A DNA stretch of 64,000 bases from a virus (Duplodnaviria > Heunggongvirae > Uroviricota > Caudoviricetes), in IMG/VR virus record IMGVR_UViG_2718218139_000007; one strand, given 5' to 3'. The position numbers are program-made. Shown piece by piece: positions 24,001 through 30,000 of the stretch (positions are counted from its first letter, which is position 1; the number at the start of each line of letters is the position of its first letter).

Positions 24001-27000
24001 CGACGTGACGGAGGAATGCTGAGTGGCTGAGATAAAAACGCTGCATCTGGTCCCGCGTGAAGGGATGCAGGTGAGTGAGAAGCCGTCGGTGGTGAGGGTG
24101 CGGTTTGGTGACGGTTATGAACAGCGCCGCCCCACAGGGCTGAATCCTCAACTGAAGACGTTTCAGGCGGTGTTCCGGGTGACGGATGAGTCAACCCGGT
24201 GCTGGCTGGATGAATTTTTATCCTGGCATGGTGGTTACCGTGCCTTTTTATGGCGACCGCCGAAACATAACCGGATGGTCAGGGTGGTATGCCGTGAGTG
24301 GAGCGTCACGGATAACGTCCGGTACAGTGATTTCAGTTGTACGATTGAGCAGGTGGTGAACTGATGCAGGACATTCATGAAGAAAGTCTGAACGAGTCGG
24401 TTAAATCAGAGCAGTCACCGCGGGTGGTGCTCTGGGAAATTGACCTGACGGTGCAGGGTGGTGAGCGGTATTTTTTCTGCAATGAGCTGAATGAAAAAGG
24501 GGAGCCGGTCACCTGGCAGGGGCGGAAGTACCAGGCATACCCGATTGACGGCAGTGGCTTTGAGATGAACGGGAAGGGCAGCAGTGCCAGACCGTCGATG
24601 ACGGTGTCCAATCTGTTCGGTCTGGTCACCGGGATGGCGGAAGACCTGCAGAGTCTGGTGGGGGCCACGGTGGTCCGCCGCCGGGTGTATGCCCGTTTTC
24701 TGGATGCGGTGAATTTCGTTGCGGGCAATCCGGAGGCAGACCCGGAGCAGGAGCTGAGTGACCGCTGGGTGGTGGAGCAGATGTCGCAGCTGACAGCCAT
24801 GACGGCCTCGTTTGTGCTGGCCACACCGACCGAGACGGACGGAGCGCTGTTTCCCGGTCGCATCATGCTGGCGAACACCTGTATGTGGGATTACCGGGGA
24901 GAGGAGTGCGGTTTCACCGGCGGGGCGGTGGCGGATGAGTTCGACAACCCCACCACGGATATCCGGAAGGACAGATGCAGTAAATGCATGCGCGGGTGTG
25001 AGATGCGCGGCATGGTGGCTAATTTCGGCGGTTTCCTTTCCATTAATAAACTTTCGCAGTAAATCCCGTTTTATGACACAGACTGAATCAGCGATTCTGG
25101 CGCATGCCCGGCGGTGTGCGCCAGCGGAGTCGTGCGGCTTCGTGATAAGCACCCCGGAGGGCGAACGGTACCAGCCCTGTGTGAATGTCTCCGCAGAGCC
25201 GGAGGCGTATTTTCGTATTGCACCGGAAGACTGGCTGCGGGCAGAGATGCAGGGGGAGATTGTGGCACTGGTCCACAGTCATCCCGGTGGTCTGCCCTGG
25301 CTGAGCGAGGCCGACCGGCGGCTGCAGATAAAAAGTGCACTGTCCTGGTGGCTGGTCTGCCCGGGGGACATTCATAAATTCCGCTGTGTGCCACATCTGA
25401 CAGGACGGCTCTTTGAGCACGGGGTGACGGACTGTTACACGCTGTTCCGGGATGCCTACCATCTGGCGGGAATTGATATGCCGGATTTTGAGCGTGAGGA
25501 TGACTGGTGGCGTAACGGTCAGAACCTTTACCTGGACAATATGGCGGTCACCGGCTTTTACCGGGTGCCCCTGTCCTCTGCACAGGCGGGCGATATCCTG
25601 CTGTGCTGCTTTGGCGCATCGGTGGCCAATCATGCCGCCATTTACTGCGGCAACGGTGAACTGCTTCACCATCTGCCTGAACAACTGAGTAAACGGGAGA
25701 GGTATTCCGAAAAATGGCAACGACGAACGCATTCAGCCTGGCGTCACCGCCACTGGCACGTATCTGCCTTCACGGGGATTTACAACGATTTGGCCGCCGC
25801 CTCAGCCTGTACCCGAACACGGCGATTGTGGGGCTGCAGGTGGATGCGGAGCAGTTTGGCGGTCAGCAGATGACGGTGAACTACCATATCCGCGGTCGCA
25901 TCATCCAGGTACCGTCAAACTATGACCCGGAAAAACGCACGTACAGCGGCATCTGGGACGGCAGCCTGAAACCGGCATACAGCAACAACCCGGCCTGGTG
26001 CCTGTGGGACATGCTGACTCACCCGCGCTACGGCATGGGAAAACGTCTGGTGGCGGCGGATGTTGACAAGTGGGCGCTGTATGCCATCGGGCAGTACTGC
26101 GACCAGACGGTCCCGGATGGTTTCAGGGGCACAGAGCCGCGGATGACCTTTAATGCGTACCTGTCACAACAGCGTAAGGCGTGGGACGTTCTCAGTGATT
26201 TCTGCTCGGCGATGCGCTGTATGCCGGTATGGAACGGCCAGACGCTGACGTTCGTTCAGGACCGCCCGTCGGATGTGGTGTGGCCGTACACCAACTGCGA
26301 TGTGGTGGTGGATGATAACGGCGTGGGGTTTCGCTACAGCTTCAGCGCCCTGAAGGACCGCCACACGGCGGTGGAGGTGAATTACACCGACCCGCAGAAC
26401 GGCTGGCAGACCTCCACTGAACTGGTGGAAGACCCGGAAGCCATACTGCGCTACGGACGCAATCTGCTGAAGATGGATGCGTTCGGCTGTACCAGTCGCG
26501 GTCAGGCTCATCGTGCCGGACTGTGGGTGATAAAGACCGAACTGCTGGAAACGCAGACGGTGGATTTCACGCTCGGGTCACAGGGGCTGCGTCACACACC
26601 CGGTGACATTATTGAAATCTGTGATAACGACTATGCCGGGACCATGACCGGCGGACGTATCCTGTCCATCGATGCCGCCAGCCGCACCCTGACACTGGAC
26701 CGTGAGGTGACCCTGCCGGAGACAGGTGCCGCCACGGTGAACCTGATTAACGGCAGCGGTAAGCCGGTGAGCGTGGCCATCACTGCACACCCCGCGCCGG
26801 ACCGGATACAGGTCAGCACCCTGCCTGATGGTGTGGAGACATACGGTGTATGGGGACTCTCCCTGCCGTCACTGCGTCGTCGCCTGTTCCGCTGTGTCTC
26901 CATCCGGGAAAACACGGACGGCACCTTTGCCATCACGGCGGTGCAGCACGTACCGGAAAAGGAAGCCATCGTGGATAACGGGGCCAGCTTTGAGCCGCAG

Positions 27001-30000
27001 TCAGGCACCCTGAACAGCGTCATCCCTCCGGCAGTGCAGCACCTGACGGTGGAGGTGAGCGCAGCTGACGGTCAGTATCTGGCGCAGGCGAAATGGGACA
27101 CGCCGCGGGTGGTGAAGGGTGTGCGCTTCAGCCTGCGCCTGACCAGCGGAAGCGGAGAAGACAGCCGTCTGGTGACCACCGCCATCACCGCGGATACAGA
27201 GCACCGTTTCAGCGGTCTGCCGCCGGGGGAATACACCCTGACGGTCAGGGCGATTAACAGTTATGGCCAGCAGGGCGAACCGGCCACCACCACGTTCAGG
27301 ATTTACGCACCTGCGGCACCCGCCTCGATTGAGCTGACGCCGGGGTATTTTCAGATAACGGCGGTCCCGCGTCTTGCGGTGTATGACCCGACGGTACAGT
27401 TTGAATTCTGGTTCTCAGAAAAACGCATCACGAACACGGCACAGGTGGAAACCTCTGCCCGTTATCTGGGTAGCGGCAGTCAGTGGAGTGTATCCGGCCC
27501 GCACATTAAGCCCGGGAAGGATTTCTGGTTTTACGTGCGCAGCGTCAACCTGGTGGGGAAATCTGCGTTTGTGGAAGCCAGTGGCCGGGCCAGCAATGAT
27601 GCAGAAGGGTATCTGGGGCTGTTTCGGGAAAAAATAGGAAAACTGCATCTGGCTCAGGGGCTGTGGGAGCTGATAGACAACAGCCAGCTTGCGGATGAGA
27701 TGGCGGAGATGAAGACCACCATCACCGAAACCCGCAATGAAATCACACAGACGGTCAGTAAAACGCTGGAAGACCAGAGCGCCACCATTCAGCAGATACA
27801 GCGCGTGCAGTCAGGCAGAAGAGAACGCTGCAAATGCTGACACTTCAGCAGGGGATGCATCGGAGTCAGCCCGGCAGGCGGCAGAAAGTGCAGCCTCAGC
27901 AAAGCAGTCAGAGGAGGCGTCCTCGTCCTCGGCCTCTGAGGCCGCTCAAAAAGCCAGTGAGTCATCACAAAGTGCAGCAGAAGCTGAATTGTCAAGAAAG
28001 ACGGCAGAAAGTGCAGCCGGTAATGCAGCCAGGGATGCAACGACCGCAGCAGAAAAAGCCCGGGAGTCAGCAGAAAGCGCACAGTCAGCGGAACAAAGCA
28101 GGATAGCGGCGGAAGAAGCCGTAAACAGAATCCCCACAGTGGTGGGGCCACCCGGGCCAAAGGGAGAACCGGGGCCCGCGGGTCCTCAGGGGCCGAAGGG
28201 AGATAAAGGAGAGCGGGGAGAGACCGGGCTGACAGGAAATGCAGGTCCACAGGGTCCAAAGGGAGATACCGGTGCGGCAGGCCCGGCAGGCCCACAGGGA
28301 CCGAAAGGAGAAACAGGTGCGGCTGGCCCGGTGGGGGCAACCGGACCTCAGGGGCCGAAAGGCGACCCGGGGGAGACACAAATACGGTTCCGTCTGGGGC
28401 CGGGAAACATTATTGAGACAAACAGCAATGGCTGGTTCCCGGATACAGATGGCGCACTCATCACCGGACTGACCTTTCTTGACCCCAAAGATGCCACACG
28501 GGTTCAGGGTTTTTTTCAGCATTTGCAGGTCAGGTTTGGTGACGGGCCGTGGCAGGATGTCAAGGGGCTGGATGAAGTGGGCAGTGATACAGGCAGAACA
28601 GGAGAATGACATGAATATTTTGAGAAAGCTTATGGAGCGTCTGTGTGGTTGCGAAAAGCATGATGACCGTGAAAACGGGGAGTTACTTACAGCACAACTG
28701 CGACTGGGACCGGCAGACATTCTGGAGTCCGATGAGAATGGCATTATCCCGGAGCAGGACAGGGTAATCACGCAGGTGGTGATACTGGATGCGGATAAAA
28801 AGCAGATACAGTGCGTGGTAAGACCGCTGCAAATCCTGCGTGCTGACGGGAGGTGGGAAAATATTGGCGGAATGAAATAGCCGACAGCTTCACAAAACCG
28901 GAGTCCGGCTCCGGTTTTTGTTGTCATGTATAGGGGATATTTGTTATTAGAGTGTGAAGTAATAAACATGTTAATACGATGGAGTGAAGGATGCCTTTAA
29001 GGAGCAGTGATATGTCCATCTTGTTCCCTGGAGGGGGAATCATAAATTCTGATTGCGACCGAGGCATGGAACACTACTGTAGTTCAGGGAAGTTCGGCGA
29101 TGAAGCTCATTCTTGCGACGCGTAATTATTATCTGGAATATGGTTTGCGTTTGTTACTGAAAGGATGCCGTGTAATTCTGGCTCAAGAATTTTTTATGCC
29201 GGAGAATCGCAGGGTTATTCTGGATAGTAAAGAATCCTGGTTAATAATCTGTGATAGTCAGTTGGGCCATTTAATGCGCAGCATGTTTCAGGGACGCCGT
29301 TTTATTCAGCTGGATCTGGAAGCGTTGAAAGGGGGACATGATATACATAATGCTGTGCGTAACAGATTGTGGACCTGGAACAAAAAAGCACGGGCACTGA
29401 CGATGTCAGAGATGGTGGTGATGTTTGGATATATCTACCGTCAGTTGCGTCCGTTCCATCTCGCCAGTGAGATGAGGGTAAACATAAAAACAGTTAACAC
29501 TTTCCTGTATTCAGGGCTGGCGAAAAATGGGCTCAAAAGAAGTAGTGTAAGGTTGCTGGCAATTTCTGAGAACAAGCGAATAGGGCATTATTCCGGAGCA
29601 GGACAGGGTAATCACGCAGGTGGTGATACTGGATGCGGATAAAAAGCCGATACAGTGCGTGGTGAGGCCGCTGCAAATTCGGTGTGCTGATGGGACGAGG
29701 GAAAAATTTGTGGATGACATTTGTTGTGGACCTTTAAGTCTGGAGTTCAAATTAAAACAGGGAGCTTTATTATGCCATTAACCTCAGATATTAATTCATC
29801 TTCGTTCCATCTTGGAATGGAATTTGTAAAAAAACGCCACAGGCATCAGGAATATAAGAAGGTGTCTGTGGTTGACAGGTTTCAGATGACTTGAGGGCGT
29901 CTTTATGTAACTGAATTTTTCTGTGGAGATGCTGTCTGAAAATATTTGATTAAAAACGGAAGCTAAGTTAAATAGTAAGTTTATTTTTTGAGCTTAGGTG

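Follow-up and report, generated by a model that had tools for sequence, protein, structure and literature searches.

An in-frame I-J fusion at the tail tip of a lambdoid prophage is most likely a product of deletion and decay

Does a long open reading frame that begins as one lambda tail protein and continues as another represent a redesigned tail tip, or the remains of a damaged one? The window analyzed here, a 64,000-nucleotide stretch recorded as a tailed virus (IMG/VR IMGVR_UViG_2718218139_000007), raises this question with a 708-codon frame, which an earlier note had read from the sequence as a precise deletion scar running from the start of gene I into the middle of gene J, and as a remodelled tail tip. 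We find that this frame reflects the ordinary decay of a prophage and not the redesign of a tail tip. With a probability of roughly 0.93, what we see here is the damaged tail-tip module of a decaying defective lambdoid prophage, from E. coli of the attaching-effacing or Shiga-toxigenic type, left by two short-homology deletions, A and B. The genes leading into the tail tip and the elements of the fusion are as follows.

24023..24364, + strand: M homologue, full length
24364..25062, + strand: L homologue, full length
25073..25873, + strand: K homologue with JAB and NlpC/P60 domains, its stop codon destroyed by deletion A
25714..27840, + strand: I'-'J fusion ORF of 708 aa, made of gpI codons 1-32, J codons 212-878 and 10 out-of-frame fibre codons, then a stop
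25714..25811, + strand: remnant of the 5' part of tail assembly gene I (codons 1-32 plus an incomplete Tyr33 codon); the overlap with the 3' end of K is also found in lambda
25810..25823: junction A, with the crossover in the 'TA' (25810-25811) that opens an imperfect 14-bp repeat, TA(TGT/CCC)GAACACGGC
25812..27810, + strand: codons 212-878 of J (1,158 codons when intact), an internal piece of the gene for the central tail fibre and host specificity

The two parts of the fusion can be assigned to their sources residue by residue. In pairwise BLASTP, residues 1-32 of the product correspond to residues 1-32 of lambda gpI (E = 2e-12), and the stretch from residue 33 to about residue 665-698 corresponds to lambda gpJ 212-850 at 69% identity (E = 0.0). 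The fusion proposed in the earlier note therefore stands, while its boundaries shift: gpI contributes 32 residues instead of ~28, and gpJ resumes at residue 212 instead of about 285, a difference of ~73. All 32 gpI residues are identical to those of gene I in an intact prophage (L002), and the J fragment shares 96.9% amino acid identity with J 212-878 of an intact Stx1a-type prophage (L004). At the DNA level, three collinear blocks match the intact prophage L002 at 94-97% identity, separated by gaps of 1.45 kb and 1.99 kb, and the same 94-97% holds on either side of both junctions. The E-values and the flanking DNA identity together rule out a chance origin. The segment corresponding to 25812..27810 lies uninterrupted inside J in 4,370 genomes.

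The domain content of the product agrees with this assignment. Pfam finds only Phage-tail_3, Ig_J and Ig_J_second in the fusion ORF, that is, the hub (PF13550) followed by two FNIII/Ig_J domains (PF24421 and PF24489), with E-values of 2.4e-38, 4e-41 and 1.2e-39. The same searches find no PF24801 (FNIII-A_GpJ, the HDII / HDII-insertion region) in the 708-aa product, which intact J carries at 86-207, and no PF06805 (Lambda_tail_I), which is found in intact I. Neither PF09327 (Phage_Tail_Tip) nor PF12421 (Ig_GpJ_C, receptor-binding domain) appears in the product; intact J has them at 871-998 and 1034-1158, so the suspected loss of the receptor-binding end of J is real. NCBI lists no protein accession or name for the exact 708-aa sequence, which fits an ORF that has not been annotated as a gene product.

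Deletion A removed 1,453 bp (equivalent to L002 4513-5965) and joined I codon 32 to J codon 212 in frame; the DNA alignment to L002 places the joint at 25810-25811. A search for short direct repeats near 25800 had been suggested as a check, and it does turn up the imperfect 14-bp repeat: the parental I site TATGTGAACACGGC and the parental J site TACCCGAACACGGC match at 11 of 14 positions, with the intact prophage L002 standing in for the parent at 94-97% identity, so that the true ancestral sequences may differ slightly. Both parental sites encode Tyr-x-Asn-Thr-Ala, each in its own frame, and this is why joint A is in frame. The deletion also took the stop codon of the overlapping K gene, whose ORF now runs on to 266 aa compared with 247, with its final residue replaced.

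The distal side of the fusion ends in a second deletion.

27808..27810: junction B, 'CAG' microhomology, the scar of a 1,989-bp deletion (L002 7965-9953)
27811..28609, + strand: 5'-truncated stf-like side tail fibre gene, codons ~139-404, with collagen repeats and Phage_fiber_C, its own start absent
28611..28880, + strand: small tail-fibre C-terminal-domain gene of 89 aa, intact, 92% identical to its L004 counterpart over the full length

Deletion B joins J codon 878, out of frame, to side-fibre codon 139, and the J frame stops at 27840, 10 codons past the junction. Lost with it are J codons 879-1158 (the distal fibre and receptor-binding domain), lom and fibre codons 1-138. An overlapping out-of-frame ORF with collagen repeats does exist, as the earlier note described (27737..28609, 290 aa), but it opens at a fortuitous ATG inside J and is not an intact gene: Pfam recognizes Collagen (5.6e-15) and Phage_fiber_C (PF06820, 2.7e-35), and finds no phage_tail_N (PF08400) in the truncated fibre, where the intact fibre has it at residues 1-133. 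Homology to the side fibre starts at about fibre residue 137-139. The fibre frame is +1 relative to J, and a programmed frameshift joining the two was considered and rejected, since this offset is the direct result of the deletion end-points; there is no indel within 50 nt on either side of the joint. A similar loss is known from the lambda stf gene, which is frameshifted in laboratory lambda: in both cases the side-fibre gene is inactivated by a simple lesion and the downstream partner gene survives. In lambda, however, the lesion is a 1-nt frameshift, whereas here it is a 5' truncation by a deletion that also removed lom and the end of J.

How did the deletions arise? The parental breakpoints have in common only a few bases, of which one copy was kept, 'TA' at junction A and 'CAG' at junction B (base-level alignment with L002 as parent). 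Two independent events of illegitimate recombination or replication slippage at these very short homologies would account for both scars. Homologous recombination between co-resident prophages was rejected as the cause because the joints share merely 2-3 identical bases.

The tail tip is not the only part of the element that is damaged. Two further lesions lie upstream.

20794..24030, + strand: third scar (deletion C), the first ~69 codons of a post-portal 353-aa gene fused in frame to the tape measure gene from codon 80 onward
14863..16126, + strand: IS3-family insertion sequence of 1,264 bp (orfA 14927..15229, orfB 15265..16083), splitting terL at codon 187

The junction of deletion C lies at about 20985-21000, with ~4,078 bp missing (L004 26449-30526); the 353-aa gene after the portal matches no significant Pfam family. 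This ~4.1-kb deletion took every gene for head-tail joining, together with those for the major tail protein and the G/T chaperones, and a tblastn search of the whole window detects none of the connector, closure, gp10, gp17, major tail, G, T and lom genes. The insertion sequence is flanked by a GAA target duplication (14860-14862 and 16127-16129) and is absent from a sister assembly of the same lineage (L003). In addition, the integrase is a 246-aa fragment without its N-terminal part. The lambdoid gene order, together with several independent lesions in genes for particle formation, marks the element as a defective (cryptic) lambdoid prophage. Judged from the absence of the major tail protein and other genes, it would form no infectious particles alone.

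These losses bear directly on whether the fusion could be a functional, remodelled tail tip, in which a shortened I-J hub is combined with a collagen-like fibre that replaces the receptor-binding end of J. The I-J joint preserves the frame, which stays open for 708 codons, and the breakpoints fall near domain borders: J 212 is just past FNIII-A (86-207), J 878 is at the start of Phage_Tail_Tip (871-998), and fibre codon 139 is just past phage_tail_N (1-133). However, the supposed replacement fibre is joined to J out of frame and lacks both a start and its N-terminal domain, and the J end was lost through the same 1,989-bp deletion that took lom. Comparison with lambda points the same way. Published work describes the functions of the plug of gpI and of the N-terminal domains of gpJ (PMC10721106, PMC11101478). 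In lambda, the N-terminal HDII/HDII-insertion/FNIII-A part of gpJ touches both gpI and gpL and makes up the final ring of the tail, and the C-terminal plug of gpI (residues 135-223) is the sole part of that protein seen in the virion structure (PMC10721106). Like lambda gpJ / TipJ, the fusion has the Phage-tail_3 hub and both FNIII/Ig_J domains, but it lacks J 1-211 (the HDII strands, HDII-insertion and FNIII-A) and J 879-1158, and it opens with 32 residues of another protein. From gpI it retains the start codon, the upstream region, the first 32 residues and the overlap with the end of K, while the remaining ~190 residues are gone, including the hydrophobic helices and the C-terminal plug.

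Having neither the plug of gpI nor, from J, the N-terminal hub/FNIII-A part, the distal fibre or the receptor-binding domain, the 708-aa product would probably be unable to build a tail tip. Beyond the fusion itself, K has lost its stop codon, terL is split, and there are no chaperones or connectors; that the element has no tail tube gene at all argues strongly against a working tip. The architecture occurs in no other genome or protein among 5,426 genomes and 5.8 billion clusters. Altogether, the missing gpI plug, J N-terminal part, major tail protein, chaperones and connectors leave the claim of a remodelled tail tip unsupported, and we consider it extremely unlikely. Most likely, the ORF at 25714..27840 is a pseudogene.

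The junctions themselves are rare. In megablast searches with 151-bp probes across each joint, none of 5,426 complete E. coli genomes contained junction A or junction B; the flanking halves of junction A are present in 3,315 of them. The exact 24-mer at junction A has no match in GTDB species representatives or JGI metagenomes. Among 5.8 billion protein clusters, no protein aligns across the joint when the first 100 residues are used as query; the best query coverage is 68%, and since all 105 matches are to proteins of 174 aa or less, this search adds little to the DNA result. Continuous homology to a single natural family across the junction, the outcome that the earlier note had named as evidence against a fusion, was thus sought in both genomes and proteins and did not appear.

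Could such rare junctions be false joins, made by collapsing the near-identical lambdoid prophages of one genome during assembly? Many similar prophages occur per genome, with a median of 3 matching places and up to 14-23, and a G-run in the capsid gene differs in length by 1 nt between the window and the sister assembly, a difference typical of sequencing errors. However, the three junctions are the same to the base in two assemblies (contigs of 1.38 Mb and 5.2 Mb), the sister assembly PVZZ01 (GCA_003015365) having identical deletions A, B and C. Moreover, the joints lie at 2-3 bp of homology and not in the long shared repeats where collapse occurs, and the flanks are collinear. We therefore reject misassembly, to which we would give hardly any probability.

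The junctions are absent from every other genome searched, which suggests that the deletions are recent. This matters for the interpretation of the open frame. The 2.1-kb fusion frame remains open, and of the three joints only B shifts the frame; that A and C are in frame could hint at selection for expression, but the chance that at least two of three joints are in frame is ~0.26, and if the deletions are recent, an intact frame is expected anyway.

Another reading gives the fragment a use. The fusion ORF keeps the ribosome-binding region and native start of I, so it could be translated if the late operon is transcribed. An exapted I'-'J fragment, perhaps along with the tape-measure fusion, might poison the tail-tip assembly of co-resident or superinfecting lambdoid phages, or have some other host function. 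The open frame retains its native start region within the late operon, partner subunits might still be bound by the retained hub HDIII/HDIV and FNIII domains, and interactions among defective EHEC prophages have been reported (PMC2669165). In contrast, the searches place the junction in a single lineage, which gives no indication of conservation, nothing points to expression other than upon induction, and a related strain simply lost the whole module, which leaves exaptation a very slim prospect. Equally improbable is its more specific form, in which the late operon expresses the in-frame I'-'J fragment and the post-portal/tape-measure fusion, and both are kept as dominant-negative subunits against the tails of other lambdoid phages, including Stx phages. 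If it were true, such fragments would represent a defence or competition function made out of prophage wreckage.

Ordinary decay, our preferred reading, also has close parallels. Deletions, frameshifts and IS insertions are typical of the lambdoid prophages of EHEC (PMC2669165). The defective, effector-carrying lambdoid prophages of EHEC/EPEC (Sp1-Sp18 in O157 Sakai) have the same lambdoid gene order, with effectors downstream of the fibres, and the kinds of lesion seen here, namely, deletions, an IS insertion and a frameshift, are the same; these particular junctions occur in none of the 5,426 complete E. coli genomes. Effector genes (nleA, nleH, nleF, nleG and an espM-like gene) lie downstream of the tail fibre genes. 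The gene order of the prophage and effector locus presumably resembles that of Sp9 / CP-933P. In the related strain PV0838, the prophage counterpart, which adjoins ompW, has the same early region (99.8%) and the effector locus, with the type III effector genes nleA, nleH, nleF and nleG kept and the whole head/tail module lost. The element probably persists through its downstream type III effector genes while the morphogenesis genes decay neutrally.

The locus has little importance beyond correct annotation, which should present the 708-aa ORF, and likewise the 290-aa ORF in the fibre frame, as pseudogene fragments, not as a new tail-tip protein or an intact fibre. The strain-specific junctions could also serve as lineage markers. 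As a case study, the locus offers a clean, base-resolved example of the stepwise loss of morphogenesis genes in the effector-carrying lambdoid prophages of pathogenic E. coli, with 2-3 bp microhomology deletions and an IS insertion as the steps, and PV0838 represents the end state, with the effectors retained and nothing left of the head/tail module.

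The 708-aa ORF, which joins the start of gpI to the middle of gpJ, lies in the tail-tip section of a lambda-like late operon.

Genes around the fusion ORF (window positions)
20794..24030: tape measure gene; this gene and the M, L and K homologues come just before the 708-aa ORF
24023..24364: M homologue
24364..25062: L homologue
from 25073: K homologue
25714..27840: I'-'J fusion ORF, 708 aa
27737..28609: overlapping ORF, 290 aa, in a different frame across the end of the 708-aa ORF

BLASTP against the lambda proteins of NC_001416 pairs the first 32 residues of the fusion with residues 1-32 of gpI (pair E-value 2e-12) and its residues 33-665 with gpJ 212-850 (69% identity, E 0.0). 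The earlier note had seen about 28 gpI residues running directly into gpJ from about residue 285; the gpI start and the in-frame entry into gpJ both hold, with the gpI part corrected to 32 residues and the entry point to residue 212. Among complete E. coli genomes, that of strain OkiPb01707 has the best match to this region, in what looks like a complete Stx1a-type lambdoid prophage. Aligned to that locus, window 24300-29100 falls into three collinear blocks.

Collinear blocks between the window and the OkiPb01707 prophage (L002)
Block 1: window 24300-25823, L002 3001-4524, 94.2% identity
Block 2: window 25810-27810, L002 5964-7964, 96.5% identity
Block 3: window 27808-29100, L002 9951-11245, 95.8% identity

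Base-by-base inspection and translation fixed the two joints between these blocks, junction A (I/J) and junction B (J/side fibre). Junction A falls within 'TA' at window 25810-25811. Its parental sites, CCTGTA-TGT-GAACACGGC in I and TGCTA-CCC-GAACACGGC in J, form an imperfect 14-bp repeat with 11 matches, the kind of short direct repeat that the earlier note had proposed looking for. Deletion A removed 1,453 bp (L002 4513-5965), taking the remainder of I, the spacer between I and J, and the first 211 codons of J. Reading frame is preserved across the joint because the repeat encodes Tyr-x-Asn-Thr-Ala in each parent's own frame (LYVNTA in I, CYPNTA in J). The K stop codon was lost in the same deletion, so in translation the K ORF extends to 25873, and K has 266 aa instead of the original 247, with an unrelated tail. 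The proposed deletion scar is thus confirmed at base resolution, with corrected residue numbers.

Junction B is 'CAG' at window 27808-27810. The 1,989 bp lost here (L002 7965-9953) carried J codons 879-1158, the entire lom gene, and codons 1-138 of an stf-like side fibre. J codon 878 is left whole and the next base is the last one of fibre codon 139, which puts the fibre in the +1 frame, and the J frame stops at 27840, 10 codons past the junction. The 290-aa ORF starts at a fortuitous ATG within J; the public assembly's gene caller reports a 206-aa fibre product from an internal start in its place.

Pfam domains
Intact J: FNIII-A_GpJ, Phage-tail_3, Ig_J, Ig_J_second, Phage_Tail_Tip, Ig_GpJ_C
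708-aa fusion: Phage-tail_3, Ig_J, and Ig_J_second only, without Lambda_tail_I
Intact fibre: phage_tail_N (1-133), collagen repeats, Phage_fiber_C
Window fibre: collagen repeats and Phage_fiber_C only

As first read, the J frame does stop before the receptor-binding end (codons 879-1158 are gone, and Ig_GpJ_C and Phage_Tail_Tip are absent), and the ORF at 27737..28609 is an out-of-frame fibre gene with collagen repeats. In lambda structures, FNIII-A spans J residues 72-215 (PMC10721106), and the two FNIII domains are followed by the distal shaft, the central straight fibre, and the receptor-binding domain (PMC11101478). Unlike lambda gpJ, the fusion lacks all these parts, and with such losses the lambda structures predict that it would be unable to assemble into or close a tail tip. 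The suggestion of a functional, remodelled tail tip is therefore contradicted: the J-fibre joint is out of frame, the fusion is missing domains, and the tail tube gene is missing. Exaptation of the 708-aa fragment as a dominant-negative protein is unlikely and finds no positive support.

Could the scars instead be an assembly artefact? Two public contigs carry the 708-aa sequence unchanged, PVZZ01000002.1 (GCA_003015365.1, 1.38 Mb) and one of 5.2 Mb; the sequence has neither a protein accession nor a name. The sister draft contig from PVZZ01 (L003) equals the window over 21.7 kb, where a G-run indel is the sole difference and the IS is absent, and it carries deletions A and B as well as a third, deletion C. 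These shared joints, together with their nature (2-3 identical bases), contradict an artefact. Among 5,426 complete E. coli genomes, 151-bp probes over junctions A and B gave no spanning match; one or both probe halves occur in 3,315 (junction A) and 764 (junction B) of them, and the J fragment is uninterrupted within full J genes in 4,370. A junction-A 24-mer had no match in GTDB species representatives or JGI metagenomes. Searching with the first 100 residues of the fusion returned I and J homologues, none of them across the joint (maximum coverage 68%), so no single protein family continuous over the junction was found; since none of the 105 matches exceeds 174 aa, the protein search counts for less than the DNA probes. 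By these DNA and protein searches, the deletions are restricted to one lineage, which suggests that they are recent, and recent deletions would account for a fusion frame that is still open.

Deletion C emerged when window 1-34000 was compared with the OkiPb01707 prophage (L004) by megablast and a finer alignment, and when the full set of 21 L004 late proteins was run in tblastn. It spans ~4,078 bp (L004 26449-30526), has its junction near window 20985-21000, within 20794-24030, and joins the first ~69 codons of an unnamed 353-aa post-portal gene in frame with tape-measure codon 80. The head-tail connector, head closure, gp10-like, gp17-like, major tail subunit, G, and T genes are taken out, and neither they nor lom have a tblastn match anywhere in the 64-kb window.

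Other lesions and effector genes
14863-16126: IS3-family element, 1,264 bp, splitting terL at codon 187, with a GAA target duplication
30124..31446, minus: nleA, downstream of the fibre genes
32102..32842: truncated integrase, 246-aa fragment without the N-terminal part
33259-34179: OspG-kinase/NleH gene (nleH)
34245-34814: nleF
36971-37618, minus: nleG-family gene
37802-38392: IpaB_EvcA-family (EspM-like) gene
39899-40549: nleG-family gene

The terL element, possibly an IS600 by its size and ends, is absent from the otherwise identical PVZZ01 draft; either it inserted very recently or the two assemblies differ at this point. At window 17411, a G4 run (G5 in the sister assembly) puts the 645-aa protease-capsid gene out of frame at codon ~42; a true mutation or a homopolymer error in sequencing may be behind this.

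Two deletion joints, and three with deletion C, fall on identical stretches of 2-3 bases, and the imperfect repeat flanks one of these joints. Such microhomology may have let illegitimate recombination or replication slippage produce the deletions. That junctions A and C are in frame is not significant, because the chance of at least two of three joints being in frame is ~0.26.

A second lambdoid prophage occupies window 41429-64000, so two prophages stand in tandem. It begins with a 428-aa integrase (41429-42715, minus) and has a separate trio of tRNAs (56218-56468), with tail genes from ~62 kb. Its L homologue (63161-63855) needs two frames to align, one for residues 1-53 and another for 53-232, suggesting a further frameshift or a homopolymer error. 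Rfam matches above gathering score (3694-3843, 8194-8366, 48844-49032, and 57868-58080) comprise a sok antitoxin RNA adjoining a hok-like locus, two STnc100 sRNAs, one in each prophage downstream of the tRNA clusters, and adjacent isrK and C4 antisense RNA at 48.8-49.0 kb. Past the Q gene, ARAGORN places Met(CAT)-Lys(TTT)-Arg(TCT) tRNAs at 7180-7420. The matching prophage of the related strain PV0838 is annotated with tRNA-Ile and tRNA-Arg only; the CAT tRNA is probably an Ile2 tRNA, and relative to that annotation the window seems to have an additional Lys tRNA.

Past the tail fibre genes, window 29100-40549 contains a type III effector cluster, and several STEC genomes have loci matching it at 98.8% identity. 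Transposase remnants and the truncated integrase are interspersed in it. PV0838 is one of these STEC strains; its prophage adjoins ompW, with an early region 99.8% identical to that of the window. There (L005, NZ_AP027188.1 1788214-1789048), lysis/antirepressor genes lead straight to a small fibre C-terminal gene; the entire head/tail module is gone, and nleA (frameshifted there) and nleH are kept. The window thus shows this decay at an intermediate stage.

This is an already well-known kind of event, ordinary prophage decay. In O157 Sakai, most lambdoid prophages have deletions, frameshifts, and IS insertions yet persist, and at times they can be mobilised with the help of other prophages (PMC2669165). 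Like them, the window prophage is damaged but retained. Its morphogenesis genes would no longer be under selection, and the element may be kept for its effector cargo.
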